A DNA stretch of 62,874 nt, the filler included, from Atractiella rhizophila (Eukaryota), in NCBI GenBank assembly GCA_021432655.1. It is 17 parts of 17 records of this genome, joined end to end, with 100 filler letters (N's around TTAATTAATTAA, not from the genome) between each part and the next. Parts side by side here need not be neighbours in the genome. Positions count along the whole stretch, not along the records: positions 44,781 to 48,343 come from MU272526.1; 16 more parts are not named here. One strand, 5' to 3'. The position numbers and the translations under genes are program-made. This document shows positions 1,599 through 50,049 of the stretch, piece by piece. Under the pieces are notes generated by a model that was not told where the DNA came from, ran no database searches, and saw only the letters and a program-made list of their open reading frames with translations. Positions within the stretch are counted from its first letter, which is position 1, and each line of letters opens with the position of its first letter.

Positions 1599-3690
<2,092 letters not shown>

Positions 3691-3790: not shown

Positions 3791-3990
3791 CTCAGACCCC
3801 TCTACACGAGGTGTCGATAACCTATCGACATGGACCACTTTCAACAAAATTGCTCCCCTCAGACCCCTCTACACGAGGTGTCGATAACCTATCGACATGG
3901 ACCACTTTCAACAAAATTGCACCCCTCAGACCCCTCTATACCTGGTGTCGATAACCCATCGATCTGGCACAGTTTTGCCAAAATTGCACT
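3791..3990. repeat. 67-bp tandem repeat with an internal hairpin, truncated at the contig edge
   Basis: Units start at 3791, 3858 and 3925. Each has TGTCGATA-ACC-TATCGACA; the third is degenerate. Mirror copy at about 33427-33617. Confidence 0.9.
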
Positions 3991-4279
3991 TATCGTTAAT
4001 AACGTACAGAGAACACATTTCTAAACTGTTATAAATTAATTTTGCAACTTTGAATGTACTTTGTTTAATTGGACATATATGCCAAATATGAACCAGCGCT
4101 ATCCAATGAAGGAAGGATTTCAATAGATAAGTGTTTTAAGATGTGTCTTAGAGAAGACGTTGCCTGTGAGTGTTTATACGTACATGACATTTTGACTGGA
4201 TTGTTATTCCTATCTATGGCAGGGTTCTATCCTGGTTGACTAAGAGCCAACAGTTTCGTACTGATGCTGTTTTTATTGG

Positions 4280-4800
4280 GGCAGGGTTGCACCTTGGTGC
4301 CTAGGAGGCAAGGATATAGCCAGGATCCTGTTCCTGGCAGAGGCAGGGTTGGAACCTGAGCAGCATGAAGGGACAAGGATATAGCTAGGATCCTGTTTGT
4401 GACACAGGCAGGCTTATACCCTAGGCAGCGAGGAGGCAAGGATGTAGGTGGGATCCTGTTCCCGACAGCATCACAGTCGTACCCTGGGTGCCTAAGAGGT
4501 AAGGATGTAGCCAGGATTTTATTCCTGACAGAGGCAGGGTTGTACCCTGGGCTGCCAGGAGGCAAGGATTTAGCCTGGATCTCATTCCTGAAAGAGGCAG
4601 GGTTGTACCCTAGGCAGCGAGGAGGCAAGGATGTAGGCGGGATCCTGTTCCCGACAGCATCAGTGTCGTACCCTGGGTGCCTAAGAGGCAAGGATGTAGC
4701 CAGGATCTTGTTCTTGACAGAGGTAGTGTTGTACCCTGGGCAGCCAGGAGGCAAGGATTCAGCCTAGGTCTCATTCCTGAAAGAGGCAGGGTTGAACCCT
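4280..4800. repeat. 63-bp minisatellite with a 189-bp (3x63) higher-order period
   Basis: GATGTAGG(T/C)GGGATCCTGTTCCCGACAGCA recurs at 4441 and 4630. The translated track shows 21-aa units in an A-B-C-A-B-C order. Confidence 0.9.
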
Positions 4801-5016
4801 AAAGTACTGTTATTAGTTATTTTGCGCGACAGGGGGTGGGTCACAGTCAGCTGCTCACCCGAAGTGGTAATTTCGCACCTGGAGGGCATTTCGCAAGTTG
4901 TGGCCCATTGCTGATCCAAAATGTAAATTTCGTTACTGCAGTTGAACTTAGCAGGTTACGGCCTGTTGCTGATCTGACCTTGCTATTTTGCTACTGGAGG
5001 TACACTTCGCAGGTTG

Positions 5017-5530
5017 CAGCCAGCCAGCCACCCGAAGTGGCCATTTCCCGACTGGAGGGTTTACTGTCTCACGAGTGTGCTCTCTCGCATTTGCAGTCTC
5101 GCGTTTGCAGTCTCGCGTTTACAGTCTCGCGAGTTTGTTGCAGTCTCGCGAGTTTGCATTCTCACTGGTTTGCTCTCTCGCGTTTGCTGTCATGTGAGTT
5201 TGCATTCTCACGGGTTTGCCATCTCGCTAGTTTGCTCTCTTGTGTTTGCAGTCTCGCAAGTTTGCTATCTTGCGAGTTTGTTGCTCTCTCACGAGTTAGC
5301 TGTCTCATGAGTTTGTTGCTGTCTCACGAGTTTGCAACCTAGTGTTTGGGTTCACCTCACAAGTTCGCTGTCTCGCGCATCTACTCTCTTGCAAGCCTGC
5401 TCCCTCACAACTACAGGGGCACTTCGCACATTGCAAGCTATCGCTGAACCAAACTTGACCTTTTGCGACTGGAAGGCACGTCGCACCTTGCAGCCAGCCA
5501 GCGACCCGAAGTGCCCACTTCGCGACTGGT
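5017..5530. repeat. Degenerate ~14-18 bp TCTCGCGAGTTTGC-type array bracketed by ~40-bp direct repeats
   Basis: Many TCTC(G/A)CGAGTTTG variants at about 5065-5400. GCAGCCAGCCAGC(C/G)ACCCGAAGTG..CGACTGG occurs at about 5017 and 5490. Confidence 0.8.
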
Positions 5531-5920
5531 AGGGAACTTGCCTCCCTCGTGATGAACCTCGCATGTTTGAGCGAGTTCGCGTCGGGGCTGATCCCACCTC
5601 GCAAACCATTTTGGCCGTAGCGTCCGAGCTGACGGGACTCAATGATGTGTTCCGTCCCGTCAGTCAGAGCCTCGCGACTGGGCTGACAGGACTCACCCTG
5701 GCCCTGACCCTAACTCCGTTCCCCAGCCAACTTTGACTGACGGAACAGTTCCGTTGCGAAGGAATAGTAGTAGAGTCTAGGTGTCAAGGGGTGCTGTGAT
5801 AATATAGTTGGGAACCCAGTACATTTCCTCCCAACTTGGCATTGACCAAACTAAAATTGCAGACTGACTCCCACATCAATTTTTTTTTCTATCTTACTAA
5901 TTCTCAACACCATAGTACAA

Positions 5921-7452
5921 CTACTTTTTCTTCAAACTCTCTTTTCCGTCTTTCAAAGCCTTGACCATCCTAGCTACTATCGTGCTAACCTCAGCCTTCT
6001 GATCAGTGCCTTCCAGGAAGTTAGAGGCAAGACTTCTAATGCTTGCAATTGGAATGAAGAGCGGTTGAGAGACTTTCCAGAGCAGTGATAATATCTTCTC
6101 TCGATCCCATTTCCAATTGACATCTTTGCTGCCTAGAAGTTTAGCAGCATTTGCATTAAACATGGCTTGGGTTTGGGCAGTGTCCAGAAGGAAACATTTC
6201 GAGTGAAAGGCTTCGTCCGTCGGGCCGAACCAGGTAGAAAGCGGTGAGTGGCCTTTTTGAGGAAGAGGTGGGACACCCAAGACGGATGTGGGATCAGTAC
6301 CTCCCACAAGCATTCCAGACGACTGCCCCAACGATGTGTCGTTCTTGTTATCCCAGGTCCGCAGGTAGAATGGCCCAGTCTCTCCCGTCACCTGTGGGAC
6401 AAAATCGCAGAAAAAACGATAAATGCAGAGGAGACACGACTCCAAGTCATCCAAAATCGTTTGATTGTATAAAGGAAGGATGTTATCCTCCTTGTTTATG
6501 ATTGCCTGCAAGGCACGTCGAGAAAGATAAGGGTACGTTCCCTTGAGCGAGCAATGTCAAAATATGCACTAAATGGATTGTAACATGAAATGTACTGACG
6601 GAGATCTCGATGTGAGCGTCCTCCTCGTTATCGCGTTCTGTTTCTGCTGATCGGGCTTGAGTGGATTTGGCTAAATTGATGGAAAAAATCAAAATCGTTT
6701 AACCAACCAATGGTAGGGAAGGTTTCATCTTCTTTTCCGGGTGTGAACTGGCGCATGAAAATATTCGCATAAGAAACATCACGGTGGACGAAGTCTTGAT
6801 TATTTAGAGTTTCAAGTTCTGTCGGAGTTTCTGAGTGACGGCAGTAGCAGACAAAAAGAACCCACGCCATAGAACCCCAATGAATGTATCCAAAACTTCG
6901 TCGACATTTTTCGCTGCTCCAAGAGGAAGGCCGACAGTTGAGTGGTACATTAAGACAGGAATAAGCTCTTTCATCTCAATCCTCGGCTTTTTCTTCTTGT
7001 CCCACGCTGCGTAGTTTTCGAAAATCTCGCTCGTCGAGTACCCGGGGAATGAAAGCAGAACGCGCAGAGCATGTTCTAGCCACCCCCATTCTTGCTTCTG
7101 GCCTTCAAACTCTGGCAGCTGGCCCTTCTTGACGTCCTTCCTCCAGCGATTGAACAACTCGATGTTATCCTTCACCCTTTCCAGAAGAGTTTCGTCCAGC
7201 CATACGTGCTTGATAACGCCGTACGTCCCATTGTCGGACTTGCATGCCCAAACCTGTGTTCCACTACCCGTGATAGCGTACTTTTGAAACAGCCCTTCCA
7301 CCACCACGTTGGGGGGGAATCCACCTCCCGTAACTTCGCAGCCTTTCAAGCGCCCTTTAAGATCTAATTTAAATCCTGGTGGTGGACATAGCGGACCAGG
7401 CTCCGAAAGGGAAGAAAGGGAAGAAAGGGAAGAAAGGGAAGAAAGGGAAGAA
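5921..7452 (-). pseudogene. Fungal-type protein kinase (FunK1/Pkinase_fungal), 5'-truncated, with a +1 frameshift
   Basis: ITGSGTQVWAC, VIKHVW, VGLPL, VHRDVSYANI, GWLNDFDF, (intron) GTYPYLS and QTILDDLES. An extra base in a 6-nt homopolymer after DFDF breaks the frame. The 5' end lies in a (GAAGAAAGG)n tract read as SSL repeats. Confidence 0.85.
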
Positions 7453-7989: not shown

Positions 7990-8200
7990 ATCATCTGTTC
8001 CTATGAACAAATTGATTAATATCACCGACAATCACACATAAAGCAAATGCCGCCGTAATACGATGTGTCCACTCGGCTACAACGGACGGAACGGCACTCC
8101 GAGTCGTCCCGTAGCGTACCGTACCAGAGAGCTCAAAGCAAGTCCGGACGGGTACGAGTACACGTATCGTACCCGTACGTCCTGGCCGGTACGACACAGG
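7990..8200. mobile_element. Dispersed repeat, subterminal region of a hAT-like DNA transposon (copy lacking the TIR)
   Basis: Homologous to 48444-48674 and rich in CGTAC/CCGTAC motifs. Confidence 0.65.
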
Positions 8201-11314: not shown

Positions 11315-11539
11315 AGAGAGATGCAGTCTTACCAATCCGACGCGTCCTCAGCCGCTATTCCTTCTCCAGGTGCAGGAGCTGAAGACACGATTGCGCTCTT
11401 AAATGCCTCTCCCGTCCAATCGGAGGAGACACCATACCTCAATTCGTCGCCAGACTCGGTGCAGTATGTTGGATTTGGAGATGAGTATTTTGCTAGGAAT
11501 GAAGAGAACCAGTCAAAAGGTAATGTGGTCGATTCGTGA
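11315..11539 (+). CDS. Probable C-terminal fragment of an unknown gene
   Basis: Frame is open from the contig start to TGA at 11539 (…FARNEENQSKGNVVDS*). Confidence 0.4.
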   Translation, partial: REMQSYQSDASSAAIPSPGAGAEDTIALLNASPVQSEETPYLNSSPDSVQYVGFGDEYFARNEENQSKGNVVDS

Positions 11540-11944
11540 TTTTTGACTTTTTTCAGTGTATAGTTGTTTTGGCATTCACGTTTATTCTTTGCTTTCATTA
11601 CATCTGTGAACAGTTGACGGCTCTATCATTCGTATGGACTGCTGTAAATATTTCAAGGACTAATATTATTGCTCATGCGGTAACACATTTTAGCATGCCA
11701 AAGTAGGCCGTCCGTGGAGCACTATGTGAAAAGACCCACCCCAGTGAGCGTCGTATTTACAAATAAGAGTTTACAAATAAGAGGGTCTCTACCTTCCCGT
11801 GTTCATCTTGACGACAAATCACACTGAGGTCAGTATGGAGCCGAGATGTTGAACAATGTGACATCATGTTAACAAGAGTGGCTCGTATTAAGATCCATTA
11901 GCGACGTGCGATAAATTATTCCAGGTGTGCAATATCTATCCTTT
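11390..11944. repeat. ~550-bp direct repeat, copy 1
   Basis: Aligns by eye with 13909-14447 from ATTG(C/T)GCTCTTAAATG through GCGATAAATTATTCCAGGT..TATCTAT, with scattered substitutions and indels. Confidence 0.9.
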
Positions 11945-12486
11945 CTTAAGCAAATGTTGAACCAAACCGTTCCATTCGGTTGGTTTGCGGACGAGCGGTC
12001 ACGAAATAATCTACTTTCGTCGCATTTGTGAGATGCTCGGTTGGCTCTGCTCTAGATGGTGAACGACCATTAGAGCAGGAGAGGAGGAAGTGGACTATAT
12101 ATATGTGGAATCGGGGCGAAGTGGGGGAAAGCACGAAGACAACGGTGGGCGGTGCGGTGAGTGCCACGCTCCCACTCTCAAAGCATTCTATGCATTGCTG
12201 TTCTTCTTCAGCAGCATACACAACACATCTATGTTTTTTACAACTTACAACTGTCCTCTGAGCCAAAATATGTCTCAGCATGACCGTTACAACCAGCAAT
12301 AATTGTGCGGCGCGTAAATTGGAAACAATGTTAACATGGAGAAGCTTATTTGACTTCGTTCCCTTCATTACACAATTTAGCGCCAGCTGGAGTTTTACTC
12401 AGAGCCTCAGGCATTGTTTGCGGAAACAACTTTGCACTTTGATTGTTTGAAGAGTACGTCTATCTTAATGTTCCGACTACTGGATT

Positions 12487-13908: not shown

Positions 13909-14447
13909 ATTGTGCTCTTAAATGACTCTCCCGTCCAGTCGGAGGAGACACCATACCTCAATTCGTCGCCAGACTCATTGCAGTATGTTGGATTTGGAGA
14001 CGAGTATTTTGCCAGGAATGAAGAAAACCAGTCAAAAGGTAATGTGGTCGATTCGTGATTTTTGACTTTTTCAGTGTATAGTTGTTTTGGTATTCACGCT
14101 TTTCTTTGCTTTCATTACATCTGTGAACAGTTGACACTTCAATCACTCGTATGGACTGCTGTAAATATTCCAAGGACTAATATTATTGCTCATGCGGTAA
14201 CACATTTTAGCATGCCAAAGGCCGTCTGTGGACACTAACTTCGAGTGAAAAGACCCGCCGCAGTGAGCGTCATATTACTAATAAAGGGGTCTCTGCTTCC
14301 CGTGTTCCTCTTAACGACAAATCACACTGAGGTCAGTATGGAGCCGAGATGTTGGACAACATGGCATCAAGTTAACAAGAGTGGGTCGTATTAAGATCCA
14401 TTAGCGACGTGCGATAAATTATTCCAGGTATGAAGTATCTATACTTT
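13909..14447. repeat. ~550-bp direct repeat, copy 2
   Basis: See copy 1. The right end overlaps the stop codon of the mL44 gene. Confidence 0.9.
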
Positions 14448-14973
14448 TTTAGCACTGAAAGCGACCACATCCGAATCTCCAATCGTCGGAGGCTTATACG
14501 GCTTCTCGTTACCCTCAATCATCGTATCAGAATACCTGCTCATGCCGTCCGCCCATTCGTGGTATTTGCCCTTCTCTGGCGCTTCAGCTTTGCTCGGAGT
14601 GAGATATATGCGTAGAAGTGCGTCCTCGAACGCTCGTCTGGTAGCCATCTTGAGCGAGGATCCGACTCCTTCTCCAATCCTTAACGTTCCTGAGTACACA
14701 CCGATCAAGAATGTAGGTGATCTAGAAAGTCGTCCAGTTTCTTTCATGAGCCTATTCACCGCAACGTTAGAACCTTCATAAGACAGAAGAGATACACGTA
14801 CCGAGGAAGAGGTGGCGCTCTTCCGTATTTAGTCAGGGTATGAGTCAAGACCTCACGTGGATTATCGAACTTGAGAAAAGGGGCGGGATCTATTTTTCTC
14901 GAAAAGAAATTGTCTCTAAGGAACTTCCGAGTTCCCTCAATACCCTACAAGTACGCGCGGTCAAACAGCAGCC
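14439..14973 (-). CDS. MRPL3: Mitochondrial ribosomal protein mL44 (RNase III/dsRBD-like), C-terminal part
   Basis: RKFLRDNFFSRKIDPAPFLKFDNPREVL..., intron, then LMKETGRLSRSPTFLIGVYSGTLRIGEGVGSSLKMATRRAFEDALLRIYL. Confidence 0.85.
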
Positions 14974-20325: not shown

Positions 20326-21365
20326 ATGAACGGCGAACACTGGAGAATTGTACAACCGGCCCTGAGGCTTGGAAGAGGCTGAAAGGCAAGTATGAAAAAT
20401 GAGCATAGCCAATCGAATTACCCTCAAATGTCAACTCCACAATACGAAGCAAAAATCCTGAAGCACGCATCGACGTCTATATCAATGGAATCCTTATGAG
20501 TATGTCAAGTCTCAATGCAATCGTAGTCAAGACTGAAGATGTGGACATTATGGATGCATTGATTATTGGATTCTCGTAGGAGTGGGGGAATATTGCTGGG
20601 AGCTTGATGACAAAGACGGATTTGAAGTCAGATGATGCTGTGGGAACTCTCAGGGATGAAGAAGCAAGGAGGATGGCTGGAGGGATTGGTCCTGGGTTGG
20701 AGGAAGCCATGTTTGCGAAGGCAGAAGCTAAGGGAGTGGGATATTTTGCTTGAACTGGAAAGCGAATTTCACTCATAGTCAAGCGAGTCAAGGAGGAAAA
20801 GGTCGACATTGCTGGACTTGTGGTAATGAAAATCACATTGCTCGAGACTGCCCAAAGAAATTCAATGCGAATCAAACTTCCCATGAACAAGCAAACTTTG
20901 TGAACGAAAGCCTGTCAGATTACACATTTTGAAGATGAAACGATTTACTGGAGTCGAAGAGTAGTGGAATGGTCAGGCAGGATGTATTGAACAGAGGTGT
21001 GTGAGGCCTGATCTATGCGAGTTAGGCATGAGATCAATTCAAGGAGTATTCTGGGACAACTACTGGCTTATTGAAATAATGATGAAGCTTAGTATCGGAA
21101 GAAGCTATTGAATTGGAGAAAGGATAGAAAAGTCTTGTTTCTTATTTCATTTCTGGAATGATTACCTTACATTTTGGCGGAAGTTTGGAGATGTGTAAAA
21201 TGTTAGTAATACTTTCTTCATGACCATTCTGGAAGTTTCTATTTGCCACAGCTGTCATGTATATAAACACCTGTTCTTGTATTGCTGCTGCTTATGCGTT
21301 TGCAAGAGCTCAGCCAAACGTAATATATTGGTTTGAGATTAACAAAGCAGCAGAAAATAACAACA
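20326..21365 (+). mobile_element. Degenerate Copia-type gag with zinc knuckle, followed by a short LTR; no pol
   Basis: EAWKRLKGKYE, ANRITLKCQL, DALIIGFS*EW, LRDEE and CWTCGNENHIARDC. LTR copy at 21183-21365 has TATATAAA and ends AATAACAACA. Confidence 0.75.
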
Positions 21366-22552
21366 CTTTTGTTATGTTTTGTACATAAATGCTACAATCT
21401 CTGGTGAATCTTGGACATTTCAAGGGTCAGGATTTGGCATGTTGAGCGTCATTCATTGCCACCAGTTCTGTGGCTGTTCTTCTTGAACGTTCTGGACTAT
21501 CGTGCTTGCCAATGTTTGCCACTTACTGTAAAGGTATAAAAGCACTAGATTCTTTATCGTAATATCATGAACTTGTAATTTCATCATCAAGGATCATCCA
21601 ATCTAATCAGACGCTTCTGCCAATAACGGTACGGACAACATTTTTAGTCGCTCTCAGGGTCAGAATGCCGTCCCATCCCGAGTCCTGATTGGGAATAATC
21701 TGCCCTCATTTACATCCACGCGATAGGACGAACGAATTCTGAAACCTCCTCGACCTTACACTGTTGCACACAACTGTGCAGGAAGTTTCATGTTTCAAGT
21801 TCCAAGGTCCCTTTTCTGAGCCCACATCTTGATGCTAAGAGAAGATACTATGTGTTATCAGGATCCTTAACACACTTCCAGAAATTTTGATGAGGATCCT
21901 TAACACCGCATGATTACAAGACCACTTCCCAGGCGAGCTTCATCGGCACACATGGATAACCTCATTTAAGCTCTCAACTAGGTGTCCATAAATTTATACA
22001 GTCATCATGTCTCATTGCAGTGGTACAACGTTCCCAAAGGAGGACCTTCGAGCATATTCAGTGGAATTCTTGATGCCCACCAAAGCGCACAAAATTGTGT
22101 GATGAGTATTGATGAGTGTTGATACGATTGATGCGTCAATGATGATCTCCATGTTCCTTGTCAACACCCCTTTCGTACTTTCTCCTGTCTTCCACTCCAG
22201 CAGTACAGTTTACGTGATTATATTAGATAACTGGTACTATAATGTGAGTATTCTAACTTATTTTCAACCGAAATTAACCAAATCTATAGGATTACTTTGG
22301 CCAACTGCCACCGTCATTCCATACGACGACGGGTGATCTTGATGGATTTGATGTTGAGATAGTGTGACATTCTGCGAAGCCGGTGGAATGACACAGCCGG
22401 ATTCGTGGAGCTGTGATTGGTGAGGTAGAAAGGCACTGGATTGTGGGTATTGNNNNNNNNNNNNNNNNNNNNNNNNNNNNNNNNNNNNNNNNNNNNTTAA
22501 TTAATTAANNNNNNNNNNNNNNNNNNNNNNNNNNNNNNNNNNNNNNNNNNNN

Positions 22553-23457: not shown

Positions 23458-23634
23458 TGTTGTTTTTCTCTGCTGATTTGTTAACCTCAATCAAATGTAT
23501 TACATTTGGCTGAGCTCTTGCAAATGCATGAGCAGCAGCAACACAAGAATAGGTGTTTATATACATAAGAGCTGTGGCAAATAGAAACTTCCAGAATGTT
23601 CATGAAGAAAGTATCACTAACATTTTACACATCT
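23458..23634 (-). mobile_element. Solo short LTR, one end eroded
   Basis: Homologous to 34087-34256 and, as reverse complement, to 21183-21365. Confidence 0.8.
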
Positions 23635-30017: not shown

Positions 30018-31496
30018 CTGGTCCGCTATGTCCACCACCAGGATTTAAATTAGATCTTAAAGGGCGCTTGAAAGGCTGCGAAGTTACGGGAGGTGGATTC
30101 CCCCCCAACGTGGTGGTGGAAGGGCTGTTTCAAAAGTACGCTATCACGGGTAGTGGAACACAGGTTTGGGCATGCAAGTCCGACAATGGGACGTACGGCG
30201 TTATCAAGCACGTATGGCTGGACGAAACTCTTCTGGAAAGGGTGAAGGATAACATCGAGTTGTTCAATCGCTGGAGGAAGGACGTCAAGAAGGGCCAGCT
30301 GCCAGAGTTTGAAGGCCAGAAGCAAGAATGGGGGTGGCTAGAACATGCTCCGCGCGTTCTGCTTTCATTCCCCGGGTACTCGACGAGCGAGATTTTCGAA
30401 AACTACGCAGCGTGGGACAAGAAGAAAAACCCGAGGATTGAGATGAAAGAGCTTATTCCTGTCTTAATGTACCACTCAACTGTCGGCCTTCCTCTTGGAG
30501 CAGCGAAAAATGTCGACGAAGTTTTGGATACATTCATTGGGGTTCTATGGCGTGGGTTCTTTTTGTCTGCTACTGCCGTCACTCAGAAACTCCGACAGAA
30601 CTTGAAACTCTAAATAATCAAGACTTCGTCCACCGTGATGTTTCTTATGCGAATATTTTCATGCGCCAGTTCACACCCGGAAAAGAAGATGAAACCTTCC
30701 CTACCATTGGTTGGTTAAACGATTTTGATTTTTTCCATCAATTTAGCCAAATCCACTCAAGCCCGATCAGCAGAAACAGAACGCGATAACGAGGAGGACG
30801 CTCACATCGAGATCTCCGTCAGTACATTTCATGTTACAATCCATTTAGTGCATATTTTGACATTGCTCGCTCAAGGGAACGTACCCTTATCTTTCTCGAC
30901 GTGCCTTGCAGGCAATCATAAACAAGGAGGATAACATCCTTCCTTTATACAATCAAACGATTTTGGATGACTTGGAGTCGTGTCTCCTCTGCATTTATCG
31001 TTTTTTCTGCGATTTTGTCCCACAGGTGACGGGAGAGACTGGGCCATTCTACCTGCGGACCTGGGATAACAAGAACGACACATCGTTGGGGCAGTCGTCT
31101 GGAATGCTTGTGGGAGGTACTGATCCCACATCCGTCTTGGGTGTCCCACCTCTTCCTCAAAAAGGCCACTCACCGCTTTCTACCTGGTTCGGCCCGACGG
31201 ACGAAGCCTTTCACTCGAAATGTTTCCTTCTGGACACTGCCCAAACCCAAGCCATGTTTAATGCAAATGCTGCTAAACTTCTAGGCAGCAAAGATGTCAA
31301 TTGGAAATGGGATCGAGAGAAGATATTATCACTGCTCTGGAAAGTCTCTCAACCGCTCTTCATTCCAATTGCAAGCATTAGAAGTCTTGCCTCTAACTTC
31401 CTGGAAGGCACTGATCAGAAGGCTGAGGTTAGCACGATAGTAGCTAGGATGGTCAAGGCTTTGAAAGACGGAAAAGAGAGTTTGAAGAAAAAGTAG
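30018..31496 (+). pseudogene. FunK1-type kinase, second near-identical copy with the same frameshift
   Basis: Reverse complement of 5921-7399. L>P (HALR/HAPR) and K>N differences are visible. Confidence 0.85.
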
Positions 31497-33617
31497 TTGT
31501 ACTATGGTGTTGAGAATTAGTAAGATAGAAAAAAAAATTGATGTGGGAGTCAGTCTGCAATTTTAGTTTGGTCAATGCCAAGTTGGGAGGAAATGTACTG
31601 GGTTCCCAACTATATTATCACAGCACCCCTTGACACCTAGACTCTACTACTATTCCTTCGCAACGGAACTGTTCCGTCAGTCAAAGTTGGCTGGGGAACG
31701 GAGTTAGGGTCAGGGCCAGGGTGAGTCCTGTCAGCCCAGTCGCGAGGCTCTGACTGACGGGACGGAACACATCATTGAGTCCCGTCAGCTCGGACGCTAC
31801 GGCCAAAATGGTTTGCGAGGTGGGATCAGCCCCGACACGAACTCGCTCAAACATGCGAGGTTCATCACGAGGGAGGCAAGTTCCCTACCAGTCGCGAAGT
31901 GGGCACTTCGGGTCGCTGGCTGGCTGCAAGGTGCGAAGTGCCTTCCAGTCGCAAAAGGTCAAGTTTGGTTCAGCGATAGCTTGCAATGTGCGAAGTGCCC
32001 CTGTAGTTGTGAGGGAGCAGGCTTGCAAGAGAGTAGATGCGCGAGACAGCGAACTTGTGAGGTGAACCCAAACACTAGGTTGCAAACTCGTGAGACAGCA
32101 ACAAACTCATGAGACAGCTAACTCGTGAGAGAGCAACAAACTCGCAAGATAGCAAACTTGCGAGACTGCAAACACAAGAGAGCAAACTAGCGAGATGGCA
32201 AACCCGTGAGAATGCAAACTCACATGACAGCAAACGCGAGAGAGCAAACCAGTGAGAATGCAAACTCGCGAGACTGCAACAAACTCGCGAGACTGTAAAC
32301 GCGAGACTGCAAACGCGAGACTGCAAATGCGAGAGAGCACACTCGTGAGACAGTAAACCCTCCAGTCGGGAAATGGCCACTTCGGGTGGCTGGCTGGCTG
32401 CAACCTGCGAAGTGTACCTCCAGTAGCAAAATAGCAAGGTCAGATCAGCAACAGGCCGCAACCTGCTAAGTTCAACTGCAGTAACGAAATTTACATTTTG
32501 GATCAGCAATGGGCCACAACTTGCGAAATGCCCTCCAGGTGCGAAATTACCACTTCGGGTGAGCAGCTGACTGTGACCCACCCCCTGTCGCGCAAAATAA
32601 CTAATAACAGTACTTTAGGGTTCAACCCTGCCTCTTTCAGGAATGAGACCTAGGCTGAATCCTTGCCTCCTGGCTGCCCAGGGTACAACACTACCTCTGT
32701 CAAGAACAAGATCCTGGCTACATCCTTGCCTCTTAGGCACCCAGGGTACGACACTGATGCTGTCGGGAACAGGATCCCGCCTACATCCTTGCCTCCTCGC
32801 TGCCTAGGGTACAACCCTGCCTCTTTCAGGAATGAGATCCAGGCTAAATCCTTGCCTCCTGGCAGCCCAGGGTACAACCCTGCCTCTGTCAGGAATAAAA
32901 TCCTGGCTACATCCTTACCTCTTAGGCACCCAGGGTACGACTGTGATGCTGTCGGGAACAGGATCCCACCTACATCCTTGCCTCCTCGCTGCCTAGGGTA
33001 TAAGCCTGCCTGTGTCACAAACAGGATCCTAGCTATATCCTTGTCCCTTCATGCTGCTCAGGTTCCAACCCTGCCTCTGCCAGGAACAGGATCCTGGCTA
33101 TATCCTTGCCTCCTAGGCACCAAGGTGCAACCCTGCCCCAATAAAAACAGCATCAGTACGAAACTGTTGGCTCTTAGTCAACCAGGATAGAACCCTGCCA
33201 TAGATAGGAATAACAATCCAGTCAAAATGTCATGTACGTATAAACACTCACAGGCAACGTCTTCTCTAAGACACATCTTAAAACACTTATCGATTGAAAT
33301 CCTTCCTTCATTGGACAGCGCTGGTTCATATTTGGCATATATGTCCAATTAAACAAAGTACATTCAAAGTTGCAAAATTAATTTATAACAGTTTAGAAAT
33401 GTGTTCTCTGTACGTTATTAACGATAAGTGCAATTTTGGCAAAACTGTGCCAGATCGATGGGTTATCGACACCAGGTATAGAGGGGTCTGAGGGGTGCAA
33501 TTTTGTTGAAAGTGGTCCATGTCGATAGGTTATCGACACCTCGTGTAGAGGGGTCTGAGGGGAGCAATTTTGTTGAAAGTGGTCCATGTCGATAGGTTAT
33601 CGACACCTCGTGTAGAG
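30018..33617. repeat. Whole-contig duplicate (reverse complement) of 3800-7399, including all satellite blocks
   Basis: Paired ORF coordinates sum to 37417 throughout. Only about 7 substitutions were spotted and no indels. Confidence 0.98.
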
Positions 33618-33717: not shown

Positions 33718-34330
33718 CTTCTTGTGACAATAATGGTGAATCAGCCTTCAGCGTGCTGAGGGGATCTTGAAGAATGAACTCCAGCGTGTTGCCTCCAAAG
33801 CCGCATTTGCAAACCCCCCCCTCATGTCTGCCTCCTCAGCTTTTAATCTTGACATGGACAATGCGGATGAGGATGAGGATGAGGATGAGGACGATGACTT
33901 CCGGCCAAGAAGAGGCTTAGCACCTCTCCCAAGCTCCACCACACCCTTTGTGCCAGACCTTGAGCATGAAATCAATCAGTTCAACAGAACTGCCCAGCTA
34001 GAAAACAAGCAATCTGCTCTTAAATGGTGGAAGGTATGTTTCTGCTTGGATTGAGATTGCCACCTCATGTTTCAGCACAGGAAAACTGTTGTTTTTCTCT
34101 GTTGGTTTGTTAACCTATGTTTGGCTGAGCTGTTGTAAACGTATGAGCAGCAGAAACACAAGAACAGGTGTTTATATACATGAGAGCTTGTGGCAAATAG
34201 AAACTTCCAGAATGTTCATGAAGAAAGTATTACTAACATTTTACACATCTCCAACAAAAACCACCCTCTCTTCCCGACTCTCTCAAAGATTGCACGCAAT
34301 GTTCTCACTATCCCTGCAACCTCTGTAGGT
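33718..34330 (+). mobile_element. hAT transposase C-terminus interrupted by a solo LTR
   Basis: EINQF..SALKWWK, intron, ENHPLFPTLSKIARNVLTIPATSVG once the insertion is removed. Confidence 0.85.
34087..34256 (-). mobile_element. 170-bp solo LTR with a 5-bp TSD
   Basis: TGTTG...CAACA termini, flanked by AAAAC on both sides (34082-34086 and 34257-34261). Confidence 0.9.
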
Positions 34331-34631: not shown

Positions 34632-35104
34632 CGTAAGGTTGACGAGATACGGATCTGTAAGCACTGCAAATGCGAGCCACAAAAGCGATGAGAATACATT
34701 TCATTGTTGCTTAAGAGAAATAACTTTGCCTGCAAATGCGAGCCACAAAAGCGATGGGACTCACACTGCAGGGGTCTTGCATATTTGTGAGAAAATATCA
34801 CCGTAGCCCGTCGCCATTCCTTGAGCCAATTATCAAGCAATAGAAGAAGGAGAAAAAGAAAGAGAAAAAGTCACAAGACCAAAATAACGTAGGAAGTAAG
34901 AAATGGGAAGGCGCAAATGTCCATCAAAGGGGAGGGAACTGTTCAGTGGATACGCCTTCGATTGGCTTTCCGGCGGGACCATTTCAATAGGTACGGGTCA
35001 GGCATATCATAATATTTATTATAATGCATTGCAATACCACTAGCTTGTAAGCAGAACACCACAATCCTTAATGGATAGAATGCGCTAACACGAAGGTAAT
35101 TACG
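34632..35104 (-). mobile_element. Candidate solo LTR with an internal 27-bp direct repeat
   Basis: Termini CGTAA...TTACG (TG..CA expected). Flanks GCTAT/GGTAT match at 4 of 5. Repeats at 34664-34690 and 34730-34756, with a pyrimidine tract on the minus strand. Confidence 0.45.
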
Positions 35105-36354
35105 GGTATCGCAAGCTCGTCAACTCTTTCATGTATATTTCACCTCAGCTATCCTCCACCGTCCTCTTTTGCTGATGTACCCTCCTAGACTACTGGTGAT
35201 GGAGTCGGTAGCGGTGTGCACAAGTGACGAGCGGACAAGGACAATCAGCAAGAAGAAGGAAGGGATAGGATGTATTGCGAACAAAATGGTGGATAGTGGA
35301 ACGCGGAGCGTGACAGTGATGGAAAGGGAGGAGGGAAGCAGAGATGTACGAGAGAAGAGGTGACCATCCAGTTCCCTGTCCCTCTTCGCATTTGCGCTTA
35401 ATGAGATGGGTATTAGGTTCCTCCACCCCTCACCCTTCTCCTGCTGCTGCCCGGTTTTGCCTTGGCACTGCTCGACACTCCCACCTTCCCGACTTTCCTT
35501 CACCGCCGGGTCTACGAAGTGATAGAGAGCAGTGTGAGGGAAGCGTGGCAGCCAAAAGGAGAAGCGGGAGCATCGTGTAAGCGCCGTCTTGCATCAGTCT
35601 CAATAACCTCCTTCCGACCTATCCCGCTTTCCTGTAACCCTTGCCCTGCTTCTCTCGCTGCAGCATCCCTCTCTCCGTGCCTCTGTGCTACTCTTGTCAT
35701 CCACCATCCTCTGCTCTTCCAGCAACTTCTGTGCCCTCCGAAAGAAGGGCGAGTAAAATTTGGTGTCAGATCGAGGATGGAGGTGAGACCACGGGTTGGG
35801 ACTGTGAATGGACGTCGCAGAAGCACGAGAGGTTTCTCTCACCCACCTTTACCCTCCCGTTTCACCTGCTCTCCAACATCCCCAAACCAGCTTTAGCCGT
35901 CCCTCACCTCTAATCAACTCGCTTCGGAACTCAACCTCGAAGCGTAGTGAGGACGTGTGATGCGCAAATTGGGCCAGACAGAAGGAAATTCGCCCATCTT
36001 CCAGCCGTGCTGCCGTCTTTCACGCACTCACCCATTCTCTTGCTCTCCACCATTGCCTAGGAACAACTCGGCCTCCACCAAGTTTATCCACCTCCTGTCG
36101 CAGAATGCCCATCTAAAATCTAAAATCATCCCCAGAGCAGGAGAGGCACATCAAATGGCGAAAGGTGAAGAGGGTACGAATTCGAATTCGGTTGGTAAAA
36201 GAAGAAGAACGCCCCAAGGGGTCGGAGTCCATCACAGTTAAACCTGGGCGAAATTGCCCAAAACCAAAAACCCCAGTGGCAAAACGATTTTGGACCTGGT
36301 GGCACTTTTGCAAACCCCTTGGGGCAGCGGCACACATATACTGGAACCGCCATA

Positions 36355-37311
36355 TGTGACCATTCACATCCCTCATCCCTAGTTAGCTGGTGTCCCCTGT
36401 TCTGAAAGAGAATGAGCAAATGGCTCTGCAACATGCCATAAACCCTCCTTGGTCTCAATTGGTAACAGATGGCTTTGAGATGACGGAGTGTATGTGTTGG
36501 AGGTATCCAGTGTGGTATGATCACCGCACACAGGTGTACGTACGAATGGTCAATGACCTGCTCTCCCTAGGTGCTTACCACCAGGGATGAGCAGGTATGA
36601 GTCTCGGATAATAGTCATGCTAGGTGCTTACCACCAGGGATGAGCAGATCTACATGGTAGCGAGAGCAGGTTGGGGAAAAATTTTTCGAAAACGCTGTTG
36701 AATGAACGTTGACAAGTTAATATCTCTGCCCCCATCACCAGCTCCAACCCCTTTTCCTGAGCAGGAAACCGCATCCAGTGAGACCCTGGATCTCATCTTG
36801 GACCACGAGAAAGAGAAGGCGGCGACCGCGACAATGGCGAAAAACTTGATGAGTCCTTGGAGTGGCAGAAAGCTGGAGGCAGGGAACTGGAAATCTTGGT
36901 ATGAAGAGGTTATTCGCTTGGTGGTAGGGAGTGGTTTTGGGGATGTTGTTCTTGAGGAAGGGAGTGGAGGTACACCTAAACCAGAACTTCCTATTTTCGC
37001 GATCGGCGGTTTGAAGGAGAATGCAACCTCGTTTACCTCTAAGATGACCACCTATCAGAAATGAATCTCAAATGATGCGGCTGCCAATACTCGTGACGGA
37101 GAGTGATTGGGATTCGATGGCGAAATTCGTTCTTCCTTGACCTCCTGAAGGCTCAATCAATCCCGCCATGGACGGGGTTGATGGAGAAGGTACTTAATGA
37201 TCCGAAATGGGTGAGGGATTACACCAGTCCGACGTTAAGGGATAAGAAGTTTGAGTCCATGTTAGACGAAATCCTGGATTTCTGTATCAAGCAGTGGGAC
37301 ATGGACTTAAA
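36355..37311 (+). mobile_element. 5' LTR, PBS and gag-like start of an LTR retrotransposon (left boundary uncertain)
   Basis: ...TCTACA at 36654 is followed directly by TGGTAGCGAGAGC (TGGTAGCG is the tRNA-iMet-type PBS of Ty1/Ty3). ORF from 36702 contains KLEAGNWKSWYEEV and an in-frame TGA at 37064. Confidence 0.7.
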
Positions 37312-44780: not shown

Positions 44781-45903
44781 GTTTCTGGGAACCAATGCCC
44801 ATCTGTGCTCCACATCAACTTTCCCTCCGCCCAGCTCGCAAGCTCCAGGACTTCCTTCAGAACCGCTTTCTGTCCACCTTTACTAAGAAAGGGAAAAATT
44901 TCTCCCACATCCAACGCAACGTTCTTGTACATTGTCAAATACGCCGCTTCTCTGTGAAATGGCCATCCTGAATGGAGAAGCACGAAATTGACGCTAGGAT
45001 AGTTACGAATGAGGGGCTGCAGATGGGCGGGAGAGGCGAGTGTAAGTGTGAGATCTGTATCCCCGAGACCCGTGTGGAATTGAATGGGTTTGGAGGATTT
45101 TTCGACAGTGAGGAGCTGGCAGAGGAAGTTGAGTAGGGCATCAATCAGTGGCTTGTTTTGCTCGCCATCGAGACGAAGGACGCCCGTGGATTTGTAGGAC
45201 GCTTGAAGGCTAGAGACAACATTCTGCAGCGTGGAAATACGAGTGGCCCTGTCCTGAGGTTCCATAGGTGTGACGTTCAAACCTGTTCTGTCCAACACAG
45301 TGAGCACAAATAGAGTATACCAGAGTGGAGATGTTACCGATAACAGGCAATGCTTTTGAATCCCATCACCTCTTCATCTGCGATATATCTCCTCATCTCT
45401 TCGCGAAACTCATCCACAAAATGACTTGCTCCCATCCCATTCTTCAAGAGAGTCTCAGCCACAATCTCCACCCTCACGATTCGCTTGCATGACCTTTTAA
45501 CGTAACGATCGTGCGACGAGTACGATAATATTTTCTGCTCTTCTTGAGCGTCACCGACACCAAGTCCATCGTCTAAAAGTAGCGTCTCGATGCCTTCAAA
45601 ACACCTCGCATTCCAGGCCTGCCACACTTTCTCGTCACCTCTCTTCTTCACCAACTCCGCTGAGACTGCTTCCCAGCTATGTTCACATCCCAAAATGGAC
45701 GATAAGATGGCGACAGAACGGTGATGCGCCAAGGTATGTTTGGAATCGAGCAAGGACGAGGCAGATGCTTCAGACGTGATCTTCAGGAGTTCTGTACGGA
45801 GCTCTTCTCCAAGTTGAGAGGTACGGGAAAGGAGAGGATGGCAGTGATGGTCGATTATGGGGCATGTTTGAATCAGCTGATGGAGGTCTTTGACAGACAC
45901 CAT
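44781..45903 (-). CDS. fluG: FluG-like protein, N-terminal amidohydrolase domain (truncated by the contig end)
   Basis: PIIDHHCHPLL, LLLDDGL, GFKSIACYR, (intron) TGL, PIQFHTGLGDTDL, PAHLQPLI, FVLLHSGWPFHREA, LDVGEIFP and KLMWSTDGHWFPE. Confidence 0.85.
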
Positions 45904-46384
45904 GGTATCGAATCGAAATCGATTGATTCCCTGGTATCGAATGGATCGTTAAATTGATCAAGTTTCAGTCCCTTTTATATCCCTTCACCCTCACATTGGC
46001 TGGATGAGTTCCTCACTACCTTTTTATTTATGATCAGTCCGATGCACTCGCACTTCCGCTTCCGATATAACGCAGCCCTAGGGTGCCCGTCGACGGGGTA
46101 CGTCCCTTCAACTCCGTGGTCAAAGTGAAAACGCGGGGGGACCGAGTGTAGCAACTTTTCCACGACCCGGCGAATTGCACCAATTCGCCATTATTGCTAC
46201 TGTAACAGAACGACTCGGGAAGGTTACACACTGTTCAAATGGCAGTAAGGACAAGCTAAGAGAGCTGTCTCGGCTGTTGTATGAGAGTACAATGAAATAT
46301 TCAGCCTTTTTCGTCTACTTGGCTTTCATCGAGTCCGAGAAAGTTCCTTCTACTCTCATTACGAAGCTTCAGCAATGTTCGGTG

Positions 46385-47237
46385 TTACTTAAAGAGATCA
46401 GGGGCCTTCATGACGACACTGAATCCTGTGGAAGAACATCAGTTCAGCAGGAACGTTGGATGCGTAACCGACCATCCCAACCCCTCCCCAGCGTCTGGCA
46501 AGCCATTCCGCTCAGTTTTCCCTCCCTCATATATTTTGCCAACTTCTCGTTCATTTGTACCACTCCTAGAGTCGGTCCAGAATCTGGTGAAGTGACCACC
46601 TTTCCGTGTCTCACAACATTGTCCACGACGATCAATCCGCCATCTCGTAGGAGATCGTAAGCAAGGTCAAGGTACACGGGGTACCCTTCCTTGTCTGCGT
46701 CGAGGAAAACGAAATCCGTCTTCCCCTTGAAGGATGGGTCGGATAAAAGTTCCTTCATAACGTCCTCACCAGCGCCATGTCGAACTTCGATGACGCTATC
46801 GAGACCTGGCTGCCGCAAAATATTGTCACGAGAGACTTTGGCATGCTTCTCTTCGTACTCGATAGCAACGAGCTTTCCTAATGGCTCATTAGAACCTGAA
46901 AGGAGCGCTCTGCCAAGCCAGATGGCTGAGTACTGATGCAGAAGTCAGTTAGAAGAGCGACATTGATCTGGGAAAGACGGACACCGGCTAAAACTCCAAC
47001 TTCAACTACACGGCACTGCTTGTTTGGGAGGTTCGGTGATCCAGCAATGTTCTGTCTGAGCAGGATTTGCATCAACTTGCCCTGTTGGGCGCCGACATTG
47101 ATGTTTGGGATATCTAGCTCGTTCTGGGATGCGAGAACAGCATCCAAGATCGAATCACTAGAGGGAAAGACGCTGTTGTAATACTTGTCGACCGATTGGT
47201 GCAGCGCGCGGAATTCTTCTGAATATGGCAACGACAT
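46385..47237 (-). CDS. SAM-dependent O-methyltransferase (Methyltransf_3, CCoAOMT/MdmC-like), three exons
   Basis: NVGAQQGK, VVEVGVLAG-YSAIWL, DFVFLDADK, GGLIVVDNVVRHG and QTLGRGWDGFSVVMKAPDLFK*. Confidence 0.92.
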
Positions 47238-47595
47238 TTTTGACGCAGTAAACTCCTCTTGATCTGATAACTCCCTCGTACCTATAACGCATCCTTATAT
47301 AGACAATCAGGCTCCCGTCTGAACCGCTTCATCTGAAAGACCACGCCGCGTCAACCGTCCGCAGTGGAGTGGAGGAGGGAGGCATGTGGGATCCCGCCGA
47401 CGAGGACTGGTCACCACCGCAATGAGTTGTGGAGTTGTCCAGCTAGCCTGAATGCGTGGTAAACAAAACAGTGAGACGGTTTGTTAATATCTAATTATGT
47501 AGGAATTCCAGCATAAGCTGCTAATACCGTTCCTGTTCCTCAGACATTGGCAGGCAAGGGCACAAAATCTCAGGGGAGCATTGGGGAGATCCAAA

Positions 47596-48343
47596 TGATA
47601 TCAGGTTGCTCTTCATCAAGTATTATAGATTGAGTAGGCTTACAAACAGTGAGAATTTGGCTAATCGAGGGAGCTAAATTCCCCAGCCACGTACAAAACG
47701 ATACGAGTAAGATAAACGGAAAGTGGTTTCATTACAATAGATATGCGTACCTAAATTCCCCAGCCACGTACAAAACGATACGAGTAAGATAAACGGAAAG
47801 TGGTGGGGGAAAAGGAAACGAATAAGAAAGGAAGAAAAGCTTTAATAGTGCTGCAGAGCGGAGGAGTGAAATGCAAAGATAAATCCGCAATAAACAAAAC
47901 ATGCATAAGTTAGTGTGGTGTGTTCCAGTCTGTCGTGTCCGCTTCCCGATTCACATTTCCATCTCCAACACTCCCCCTCACTCGAACGCTCTGTCAGCTT
48001 CCCAGTCCCATATCGTGGCAGAAAATTGTATGTCGTTTAGCGGCCAAACCCTTCGTGAGTACATCTGCCACCTGCAGATGAGTGGGAACCCATTCTAGTG
48101 CGACGGCTCCATCTTCGACTTTCTCCCTGGTAAAGTGATAGTGTACCTCAATGTGTTTCGTCCTCCCATGAGCCGCTGGATGAGAGGCAAGAGTGAGCGC
48201 GCCACGGTTATCCCCTCGTATTATGGTGGGTGAGGTGGGCGGGAATCCTAGGTCGGAGTATAGGCGACGTAACCAGACTGCCTCCCTCGTGGCGAGCGAT
48301 AATGCAACGTATTCAGCCTCCGTGGAGGAGATCGCGACAGCCA
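47596..48343 (-). mobile_element. Copia retrotransposon 3' end: RNase H, PPT and 3' LTR
   Basis: VAISSTEAEYVAL..IRGDNRGA..HGRTKHIEVHYHFTRE..QVADVLTKGL (stop at 47994). PPT GAGTGAGGGGGAG abuts TGTTGGAG at 47970. The LTR probably ends ..GATATCA at 47596. Confidence 0.92.
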
Positions 48344-48443
48344 NNNNNNNNNNNNNNNNNNNNNNNNNNNNNNNNNNNNNNNNNNNNTTAATTAATTAAN
48401 NNNNNNNNNNNNNNNNNNNNNNNNNNNNNNNNNNNNNNNNNNN

Positions 48444-48674
48444 ATCATCTGTTCTTATGAACAAATTGATTAATATCACCGACAATCACAACTCTTTAAG
48501 CATAAGGCAAATGCCGCCGTAATACGACGTATCCACTCAGCTATAACGGACGGAACGGCACTCTGAGTCGTCCCGTACCGTACCGTACCATTGAGCTCAC
48601 AGCAAGTCCTTATGGGTACGAGTACACGTATCGTACCGTACGTCCTGGCCGGTACGATACGACAGCCATCCCTA
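48444..48674. mobile_element. hAT-like element end with TIR
   Basis: CCGTAC-rich region ending GCCATCCCTA (reverse complement TAGGGATGGC, Ac-like TAGGGATG). Homologous to 7990-8200. Confidence 0.7.
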
Positions 48675-49323
48675 GCAGCCTGCTCTACTTGCTTGGCAAT
48701 CTTGCCGGATCCCCTTGAGGGCATACTGATTTCAAAAGTTCTGGGTTTGCCCTGCCTTCAGGCCTTGCTCCAGGCTCTGCTTAAGTGCCATTGTGAGTTG
48801 ACCCTGCTCAATCTTCCTCAGTTTCTCCGCAGTGATATTTTTCAGATCGGGACGATTGGGACAAGGTTATGGTTGGTTAGGTCCTCGAACCAAAGAGAGC
48901 AAGCACAAAAGAGACCGACGCCTCAAGGACGCCATCACAATTTCATCCCCTTTTCCCCGCTTCACGATGCCGAACAAAGTAGAGGTGAGCTTGGCCCCGA
49001 AAAAACGGCCCAAATTCAGGTGCCATTTCTCTCCTCTTCCGCATATTGATTGCAATGTTGATACCTGGTGACAGCTGTTTGGTTCGTGGAAGCGACGGGT
49101 ATGACTGTTACTGAATGGGGAAGTAGGAATGCTCACGAAGGAAGATGAAGTGTTTGAGGCCCGGAGGAACTACGTTACCGTGTACTTCCTGTGCAAAGTG
49201 GGTAGATCATTTCGATCGCATCTGTTTTGAGAAGGGTTGCAGGAAAGGTTTACAGGAGAGTTGCATCCGCGGTGAAGGAATTATCTACATGACCTATTCT
49301 GGTAATTCACAATCCACTCTGTA

Positions 49324-50049
49324 ATGTCGCTGATCAGCTCTGCAGACCACTGCGCCAGGGAGGAGCGGGTCAAAGATCTAGTAAAAGAAATTGAACGGTT
49401 ACAGAAGGATAACATCGTTCTGTTGCGTAGGCTTGCAGCAGAAAAAGAAAATGAACGGTTACAGAAGGAGAACATGGCTCTGTCACGTAGGCTTGCAGAG
49501 GCAGAAAGGTGGGGGGGCTGCAATCGGCCACACAATCACTCCAACCACGTTGTAACTGACCAACCTCAAGCACATGCTCATTCGTCATCCGGCTCTACAT
49601 ATAATCTCAGGCAAGATATCCTCAAGGTTGGACGAGAAGGCGGGCAGACAGAATTCCTCGCCCTTCACAACCCCCGTCAGGCCCTCCTTTGTCCTTCACA
49701 TAACTTTGTCTATCAAGATGAAAATGAATCCCAAGCCCTCTTAACCGTCGACGAGGCATCTGTTCAACCACACAGTAATTCGGGTTGGCATCAATTTGGG
49801 CTCGGACTGCCACCTCAGCCACCAGCTCCCGTTCAAGATCAGTCCTCCTGTGACACCTCTTCTTCGGCATGGATGCCGACCGATGGCGACACCTCCTTTC
49901 AACTCCAGGCGGATCCTCGTTGTCAACAATTTGGGCTCGGACTGCCGCCTCAGCCACCAGTTCCCATTCAAGATCAGTCCACCTTTGACACCTCTTCCTT
50001 GGCAAGGATGCAGACCTTTGGCGACACCTTTGATAAGGTCTCTGTGTAA
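49324..50049 (+). CDS. Hypothetical protein with coiled-coil and internal tandem repeats
   Basis: 241-aa ORF with a 60-bp ERLQK(D/E)N..RRLA repeat and a 135-bp QFGLGLPPQPP repeat (49792 and 49927). Confidence 0.5.
   Translation: MSLISSADHCAREERVKDLVKEIERLQKDNIVLLRRLAAEKENERLQKENMALSRRLAEAERWGGCNRPHNHSNHVVTDQPQAHAHSSSGSTYNLRQDILKVGREGGQTEFLALHNPRQALLCPSHNFVYQDENESQALLTVDEASVQPHSNSGWHQFGLGLPPQPPAPVQDQSSCDTSSSAWMPTDGDTSFQLQADPRCQQFGLGLPPQPPVPIQDQSTFDTSSLARMQTFGDTFDKVSV

Follow-up and report, generated by a model that had tools for sequence, protein, structure and literature searches.

Genomic context and the Copia fragment

The DNA analyzed here, a stretch of 62,874 nt from Atractiella rhizophila referred to below as the window, carries amidohydrolase and O-methyltransferase genes at 44781-47543 on the minus strand, with three RNA-verified introns of 47-50 nt. 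Contigs from four public runs were compared with the window, namely, X1 (DNA), X4 and X5 (RNA), and X3, which bears no label as to kind. The X3 contigs skip 45288-45337, ~46425-46471, and 46933-46982 (50, 47, and 50 nt, respectively; GT-AG, minus strand), and each of these skips was seen also in X4 or X5. Given that all three of these introns of the neighboring genes are kept in X1, X3 was treated as RNA. The 5′ ends of the verified introns are GTAACA, GTCGGT, or GTCCGT, and their branch-like motifs are CTCAC, CTGAY, or CTAAC. The contig of the O-methyltransferase transcript reaches 47543, ~105 nt short of the end of a long terminal repeat (LTR1), which thus lies just upstream of the O-methyltransferase gene on the same strand. 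The Copia fragment that carries LTR1 comprises the following features:

47997-48343, minus strand: C-terminal 115 residues of a Ty1/copia pol (RNase H end), recognized by translation; stop codon at 47994-47996
47971-47983, minus strand: polypurine tract GAGTGAGGGGGAG, abutting LTR1, downstream of the pol stop codon
47650-47970, minus strand: 3′ LTR (LTR1), ~321 nt, TGTTGGAG...TTCTCA, consisting of U3 (166 nt), block (54), spacer (23), block (54), and tail (24)

When 25 of 29 metagenomic pol ORFs of at least 500 aa were used as tblastn queries, 20 matches were obtained, all at 47928-48341, with 43-55% identity. A Pfam scan of 137 ORFs of the window detected neither reverse transcriptase nor integrase, the 115-residue end being the only pol remnant in the window. 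LTR1 has TG...CA ends, is preceded by the purine tract, and is repeated in the genome, as seen from contig breaks and a jump in depth. In particular, breaks occur in both X1 and X3 contigs at 47647/47648 and 47970/47971, with loose ends running into other flanks, and the summed depth of X1, which is not a copy number, is ~243 in the flank, ~7,800 across 47637-47993, and ~1,200 in pol. The breaks and the depth jump together fix both edges of LTR1 and hence its length of ~321 nt. The original prediction that this segment is a Copia LTR is borne out by the succession of the RNase H end of pol, the purine tract, and TGTTGGAG, with the edges set by these assembly data. The purine tract GAGGGGGAG also precedes the LTRs of L040, L061, and L007, Copia loci from metagenomes.

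No second copy of LTR1 was found in the window. The 5′ side of the element is cut off near the run of Ns at 48344-48443, and the full set of two LTRs, primer-binding site (PBS), gag-RT-integrase, and target-site duplication is absent from the window; the copy at hand is a 5′-truncated, dead fragment, a relic itself incapable of replication. Beyond the N run, next to the Copia fragment, begins a repeat (48444-48660) that is 88% like 7990-8197 in the same orientation.

Structure of the repeat in LTR1

A direct-repeat search of the window identified in LTR1 two identical 54-nt copies, 47674-47727 and 47751-47804, which are 77 nt apart from start to start and are separated by a 23-nt spacer. Listed in the direction of the element, the parts are:

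47840-47847, minus strand: TATA-like TATTAAAG, 43 nt upstream of block 1
47751-47804, minus strand: block 1, 54 nt, ending TTTAG; putative first exon and start of R
47728-47750, minus strand: spacer, 23 nt, 70% A+T, beginning with the 5′ splice-site-like GTACGC and with GTAATGAA at its close
47674-47727, minus strand: block 2, 54 nt, identical to block 1, with CTTAC inside and a terminal TTTAG
47674-47750, minus strand: candidate 77-nt GT-AG intron (spacer plus block 2), the sole period-exact GT-AG placement
47650-47673, minus strand: tail, 24 nt, from block 2 to the LTR end; putative rest of U5

Both the coordinates of this repeat and the layout of the splice unit had been proposed from the sequence, and they are right to the base, with the minus strand being the element strand. 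The spacer closes at its 3′ end with TGTAATGAA, that is, with the poly(A)-signal-like AATGAA, and the CTTAC in block 2 is a candidate branch point located 34 nt before the AG. The candidate intron (GTACGC...CTTAC...TTTAG) thus has GT-AG ends and a branch-point-like motif, at a length of 77 nt compared with 47-50 nt in the three verified local introns. The position of the TATA-like TATTAAAG would fit a transcription start near the beginning of block 1, and a TATA-like or A/T-rich motif lies 30-45 nt before the block in four of the five LTRs with this layout described here (LTR1, L040, L061, and the 34.7-kb site, not LTR2).

A search of the window for the source of the LTR1 spacer gave best local matches with scores of 21-22, within the range of 30 shuffles (19-26), and a 22-mer of the LTR1 block had 0 matches in metagenomes. 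Two origins of the repeat were considered and rejected. A plain tandem duplication is at odds with the location of the GT in a unique spacer and with the 24-nt tail and the U3 end, both of which are unlike the spacer, and for a transposon footprint or target-site duplication, inverted ends are absent and the blocks are too long.

Recurrence of the layout in the window

The same block-spacer-block layout had been noted in two other LTR-like segments of the window, and it is present at both:

36495-36654, plus strand: LTR2, 160 nt, TGTTGGAGGT...ATCTACA, consisting of U3 (72 nt), block (36567-36594), spacer (36595-36619), block (36620-36647), and tail (7 nt)
36655-36667, plus strand: PBS-like TGGTAGCGAGAGC, directly 3′ of LTR2, a single exact match in the window
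36702-37061, plus strand: ORF starting with ATG, weakly resembling the N terminus of copia-type Gag (nearest Atlas cluster 0.86, Retrotran_gag_3, a lead only)
34656-34756, minus strand: third site (34.7-kb site), consisting of block (34730-34756), spacer (34691-34729; GCAAAG...AATGAAATGTATTCT), block (34664-34690), and tail TGCTTACA

For 36567-36647, the description holds in full, with GT-AG ends in an LTR that is followed by the PBS-like site and the gag-like ORF, whereas 34664-34756 shares the layout but is GC-AG and only putatively part of an LTR. LTR2 has 28-nt blocks, a 25-nt spacer, and a CAG/GTATGA edge (the slash here and below marks the boundary between block and spacer). PBSs begin with TGG, complementary to the CCA end of tRNA, as does TGGTAGCGAGAGC; no tRNA genes with which to compare it were found in the window. 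The third site has 27-nt blocks, a 39-nt spacer, a CAG/GCAAAG edge, and an 8-nt tail ending in TACA, and its status as an LTR depends solely on a possible start, GGGGA followed by TGTTGGAGAG, at 35878. Pfam searches of the ORFs around LTR2 and the 34.7-kb site gave no match below E = 0.03. Across the layout, spacers have an A+T content of 60-78%, compared with 53% in the window as a whole, and AATGAA occurs in two of the three window spacers.

A fourth LTR-like family, ~185 nt long and without the block-spacer-block layout, is represented by three copies, 21185-21370 (plus strand), 23458-23634 (minus), and 34082-34254 (minus), which are probably solo LTRs of another Copia family. These copies are 84-91% alike, begin with TGTTGGAGATG, contain a TATATAAA box, and end in AACAACA.

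The layout was set against chance by a census of all exact direct repeats of at least 12 nt in the window, with a spacer of at least 5 nt and a period of up to 200, tandem arrays being excluded. The census comprised nine repeats, three long (27, 28, and 54 nt) and six short (12-17 nt). The edge between block 1 and the spacer reads YAG/G(T/C)A in all three long repeats (TAG/GTACGC, CAG/GTATGA, and CAG/GCAAAG) and in none of the six short ones. In the window, AGG(T/C) occurs at a frequency of 0.0075 per strand, which translates into ~0.015 per repeat and ~3 × 10⁻⁶ for three of three. At these edges, A stands at +3 in all three long repeats and G at +5 in two. The anticipated enrichment of duplications with an AG/G(T/C) edge over chance was therefore recovered, at three of three long repeats against ~0.015 expected for each, and the block-spacer-block layout is not a chance occurrence.

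Metagenomic relatives and the origin of copy 2

A protein-guided scan of metagenomes yielded 542 relatives, of which the best 80 Copia loci (42-55% identity, 249 kb) were analyzed. Among these 80 loci, the edge YAG/G(T/C)A occurred in none of 15 repeats of at least 20 nt with a spacer of at least 8 nt, and the block-spacer-block layout was absent from 78. At repeat edges, AGGT was found in seven of 455 cases in the sense orientation compared with none of 450 in antisense, and among the seven sense edges, only those of L040 and L061 count, because four represent a single coincidence of pol coding and the edge in L080 lies outside an LTR. Specifically, the matches at L021 813-882, L035 697-766, L059 598-667, and L070 804-873 were rejected as introns, given that each is a 12-nt near-repeat ending AG/GTGAGA in a continuous pol frame (KVL... 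twice); the L080 edge was rejected as an LTR intron on account of its location, and a match in L007, a 60-nt tandem array in the flank, was rejected as an LTR layout.

L040 and L061 are 67% identical to each other in pol DNA and ~70% in the LTR. In both, the order of parts is more elaborate than in the window, with the first copy of the block split by an intron into A and B, followed by a spacer that begins with GTAC and by a second copy in which A and B are joined (A-intron-B-spacer-A.B):

L040: block A, 21 nt, at 2976 and 3093
L040: first intron, separating A from B in copy 1, GTAAGT...TTTAG, 53 nt
L040: block B, 15 nt, at 3050 and 3114
L040: spacer, beginning with GTACAT, 28 nt
L040: copy 2, 3093-3128, A and B joined directly
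L061: block A, 24 nt, at 3044 and 3155
L061: first intron, separating A from B in copy 1, GTGAGT...AGTAG, 50 nt
L061: block B, 19 nt, at 3118 and 3179
L061: spacer, beginning with GTACTA, 18 nt
L061: copy 2, 3155-3197, A and B joined directly

To the base, copy 2 of each element equals copy 1 minus the GT-AG intron. Lacking the first intron, copy 2 of L040 and L061 is therefore derived from spliced RNA. Furthermore, copies 1 and 2 are identical within each element (36 of 36 nt in L040 and 43 of 43 in L061), whereas between the elements A differs at six of 21 positions and B by indels. The expectation that the two copies would covary, that is, be identical within and different between elements, was thus confirmed for this pair. 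Under independent drift at ~30% divergence, the probability of zero differences is ~1 × 10⁻⁶, and a duplication that predates the split of L040 and L061, yet shows no differences, points to repeated renewal of copy 2. Such renewal calls for strong-stop DNA made on a leader in which spliced copy 1 abuts the tail, which would mean that the second intron, consisting of the spacer and copy 2, is removed as well. As a separate observation, L040 2501-3676 reads pol, LTR, and a gag-like ORF (from ~3400), an arrangement that could reflect either tandem elements sharing one LTR or collapse of two LTRs in assembly.

A candidate self-renewing leader intron

Taken together, we consider it somewhat more probable than not that this segment of 131 nt makes up the leader portion of a Ty1/copia LTR with the order U3-block-spacer-block-tail and functions, or functioned in active relatives of the dead fragment, as a self-renewing leader intron. 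In this scheme, transcription would begin close to where block 1 begins. The splice site at block 1/GTACGC would, in the 5′ leader, be joined to the AG that ends block 2, so that splicing would remove the A/T-rich spacer with its AATGAA along with one block and leave block-tail-PBS. At the 3′ end of the RNA, the LTR copy would retain block 1 and the spacer and be cleaved in or near block 2. Minus-strand strong-stop cDNA synthesized on the spliced leader would then end in the complement of the block, anneal to the terminal piece of block 2, and be extended through the spacer, block 1, and U3. Strand transfer onto block 2 would make the new LTR again block-spacer-block, with block 2 a fresh copy of the parental block 1. 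In this scheme, the transcription start site, the poly(A) site, splicing at LTR1, and the choice of acceptor are inferred.

The idea of a self-restoring LTR intron, which formed the core of the original prediction, accordingly stands in part. It is upheld by the anatomy of the LTR, the recurrence of the layout, the match between copy 2 and the spliced form in L040 and L061, and the covariation of the copies; against it stand the GC-AG edge of the third site, the length of the candidate intron relative to the verified local ones, the lack of the layout in 78 of 80 metagenomic Copia loci and in the ~185-nt family of the window, and an X3 contig without a spacer branch, which is discussed in the next section.

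The spliced-RNA origin of copy 2 would be explained equally well if the elements possess an ordinary leader intron and strong-stop cDNA made from spliced RNA is sometimes joined out of register, giving rise recurrently to block-spacer-block LTRs that are dead ends or neutral and do not represent the replicating master. The origin of the structure requires such an aberrant jump in any case. However, three of the four LTR-like families of the window show the supposed product form, as do L040 and L061, whose shared layout spans a pol divergence of 33%, and a copy with an ordinary intron at that place was not seen among these sequences. We therefore regard such a by-product origin as unlikely.

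Contigs of public DNA and RNA runs

A 247-nt contig of X3 (depth 104.5) joins 47648-47728 to 47806-47971 and so represents the whole of LTR1 minus exactly 77 nt, a skip that appears in none of 67 X1 contigs. Compared with the exact splice product of the window copy, this contig differs at the base beside the block and at three further bases, and X1 and X3 carry different organism labels. Moreover, the contig reads U3-block-tail without a spacer branch, whereas the self-renewing intron model places the spacer at every RNA 3′ end; sparse coverage of transcript ends could hide such a branch. The contig is ambiguous on account of these base differences, the organism labels, the missing spacer branch, and the length of the block, which exceeds the 31-mers used by the assembler and leaves the single-block form without a word of its own. 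It fits splicing and, equally, unduplicated LTR copies or another strain. Stretches without RNA cover (47544-47647 in X3 and LTR1 in X4 and X5) were excluded as evidence.

In X1, a variant of the LTR1 spacer was found with one change that produces AATAAA on the element strand (loose end at 47804), which indicates that the duplication occurs beyond the window copy or strain. In addition, one X1 contig seems to read spacer-block-spacer.

These observations bear on the possibility that nothing is spliced at LTR1, and that the repeat is a neutral, local duplication produced recently at the DNA level together with filler, its AG/GT edge being accidental and the RNA contig originating from a majority of unduplicated LTRs. 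The perfect match of the copies could reflect a young duplication, ~110 offsets are available in a 54-nt repeat for an accidental AGGT, the X3 contig departs from the exact product of the window copy, and that copy is a dead fragment. Nevertheless, AG/GY falls exactly at the edge of block and spacer in every long repeat, at the probability and with the A at +3 and G at +5 given above; the spacer, with one change, is present in the DNA of another strain; and L040 and L061 are left unexplained. This makes a neutral duplication quite unlikely.

Least probable, and very unlikely in our estimate, is that the repeat forms part of an ordinary R (block 1 into block 2) copied from an unspliced template, with misaligned minus-strand transfer shifting the copy number and the 5′ splice site serving only to silence the nearby poly(A) signal via U1 snRNP, because, although a poly(A)-signal-like motif follows just after the 5′ splice site, as it does in HIV-1 and foamy viruses (PMC12789967), and the X1 contig that apparently reads spacer-block-spacer may hint at a change in copy number, an unspliced template copies the blocks independently and can neither strip the first intron from copy 2 nor keep the copies of L040 and L061 identical.

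RNA folding around the 5′ splice site

A self-renewing leader intron must be treated differently at the two ends of the RNA according to the scheme above, being removed from the leader and retained at the 3′ end. Folding of the five LTRs showed that, when U3 is included, its end pairs with the 5′ splice site and the terminal part of block 1 next to it. The folding energies and the number of 200 shuffles that fold as well are as follows:

LTR2 with U3: −29.4 kcal/mol, z −4.1, 0 of 200 shuffles
34.7-kb site with U3: −24.1 kcal/mol, z −3.1, 0 of 200
LTR1 with U3: −19.5 kcal/mol, z −2.3, 4 of 200
L040 with U3: −18.4 kcal/mol, z −5.5, 0 of 200
L061 with U3: −21.3 kcal/mol, z −5.9, 0 of 200
LTR1 block 1 without U3: −8.2 kcal/mol, z +1.2, 179 of 200

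Between L040 and L061, 11 pairs of the stem are kept, with one compensatory change and a diverged loop. The start of the block sits within the 5′ arm of the stem, and an RNA starting at the block would miss that arm. The predicted folds suggest the hypothesis of a hairpin switch that would conceal block 1 and the splice site solely in the LTR copy at the 3′ end. However, the mean pairing probability of the 5′ splice sites differs little between the 3′ and 5′ contexts (0.65 vs. 0.64 in LTR1 and 0.89 vs. 0.77 in LTR2), and for this reason the hairpin-switch idea is weak.

A more general version of the proposal holds that a group of Ty1/copia elements replicates from spliced-leader RNA, that a duplicated first exon at the 3′ end of the leader intron takes the place of R such that the first strand transfer rebuilds the intron in each cycle, and that a U3-dependent hairpin over the 5′ splice site separates the 3′ copy, unspliced and polyadenylated, from the 5′ copy, which is spliced. 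We advance this version tentatively, as one that falls somewhat short of an even chance.

Relation to known systems

That introns are lost on retrotransposition serves as the textbook proof of an RNA intermediate, which is why retroelements are thought to need packaging of unspliced RNA to keep introns; to our knowledge, this is the only way by which they have been thought to do so. Reverse transcriptase, moreover, normally deletes perfect direct repeats. If the proposed mechanism is correct, it would be a new solution to the conflict over intron loss, with an LTR using a spliced template to restore the intron it carries, and the elements would be the first retroelements known to inherit an intron in this way. 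Expression dependent on splicing and the removal of a promoter-proximal poly(A) signal would be combined without either being lost, and the perfect direct repeats in the LTRs would be explained. In one library of full-text literature that was searched, nothing was found on the regeneration of an LTR intron by strand transfer.

Huff and colleagues reportedly described, in 2016, introner-type transposon insertions in which one splice site comes from the target-site duplication. As in introners, splicing here would remove the insert along with one copy of the flanking duplication; unlike introners, the structures have blocks of 27-54 nt, spacers of 18-39 nt, no terminal inverted repeats, an LTR context, and an RNA-mediated origin.

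The HIV-2 leader contains a spliced intron. Retroviruses, which package unspliced RNA, lack an exon copy in the intron, whereas in the Copia proposal the spliced leader would serve as the template of strong-stop DNA. There is, nevertheless, a resemblance to the retroviral R-U5 region: the poly(A) signal of the 5′ LTR is suppressed in HIV-1 and foamy viruses by U1 snRNP bound to the major splice donor (PMC12789967), and both there and in the Copia proposal, a 5′ splice site neighbors a poly(A) signal in an LTR portion carried by both ends of the RNA, with end-specific RNA structure invoked.

Creation of introns by tandem duplication of an exon segment containing AGGT is known from the Rogers model (Hellsten et al. 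2011, PMC3265369) and from the potato RdRp (PMC4974935). The duplication-born introns are similar to the candidate intron in that one repeat period is exactly what splicing takes out, bringing back the preduplication RNA, and in that the 3′ end of the intron copies the end of the exon. In the same sources, both splice sites stem from one AGGT, unlike LTR1, whose 5′ splice site belongs to a unique spacer that is not repeated after copy 2. A further difference is that copy 2 in L040 and L061 was made from spliced RNA.

Spliceosomal introns in LTR retrotransposons have precedents as well. Ogre and EVADE are LTR retrotransposons with introns (PMC12786077), and in maize, spliced transcripts contained in LTRs have been reported, with introns within LTRs claimed as the first such evidence (2026 preprint, PMC13192763). 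Within the available portions of these two sources, the introns of Ogre, EVADE, and maize persist via an unspliced template or in noncoding transcripts, in contrast to the Copia proposal, and an exon copy or regeneration by strand transfer is not described there. A signature by which genomes can be screened follows from the layout: a block ending in AG, a spacer starting with GT, and the same block again, near the 3′ end of an LTR.

Other repeats in the window

The window contains several further repeats. An inverted pair, 3800-7399 and 30018-33617, is 3.6 kb long and 99.8% identical, with its members ~22.6 kb apart along the stretch and both ends meeting N runs; it contains tandem arrays of 63/189 nt, 67 nt, and ~14-62 nt. 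A direct repeat of ~560 nt (88% identity) is located at 11390-11948 and 13909-14451. An open frame of 247 codons without a Pfam match (49306-50046, plus strand) contains two diverged tandem duplications, 49380-49507 and 49744-50029, with periods of 60 and 135 nt, which are 79-89% identical. Finally, thirty-two runs of 44 Ns, which are not assembly gaps, occur in regular pairs every ~3.7 kb (for instance, 48344-48387 and 48400-48443), with one pair located at the 5′ break of the Copia fragment.
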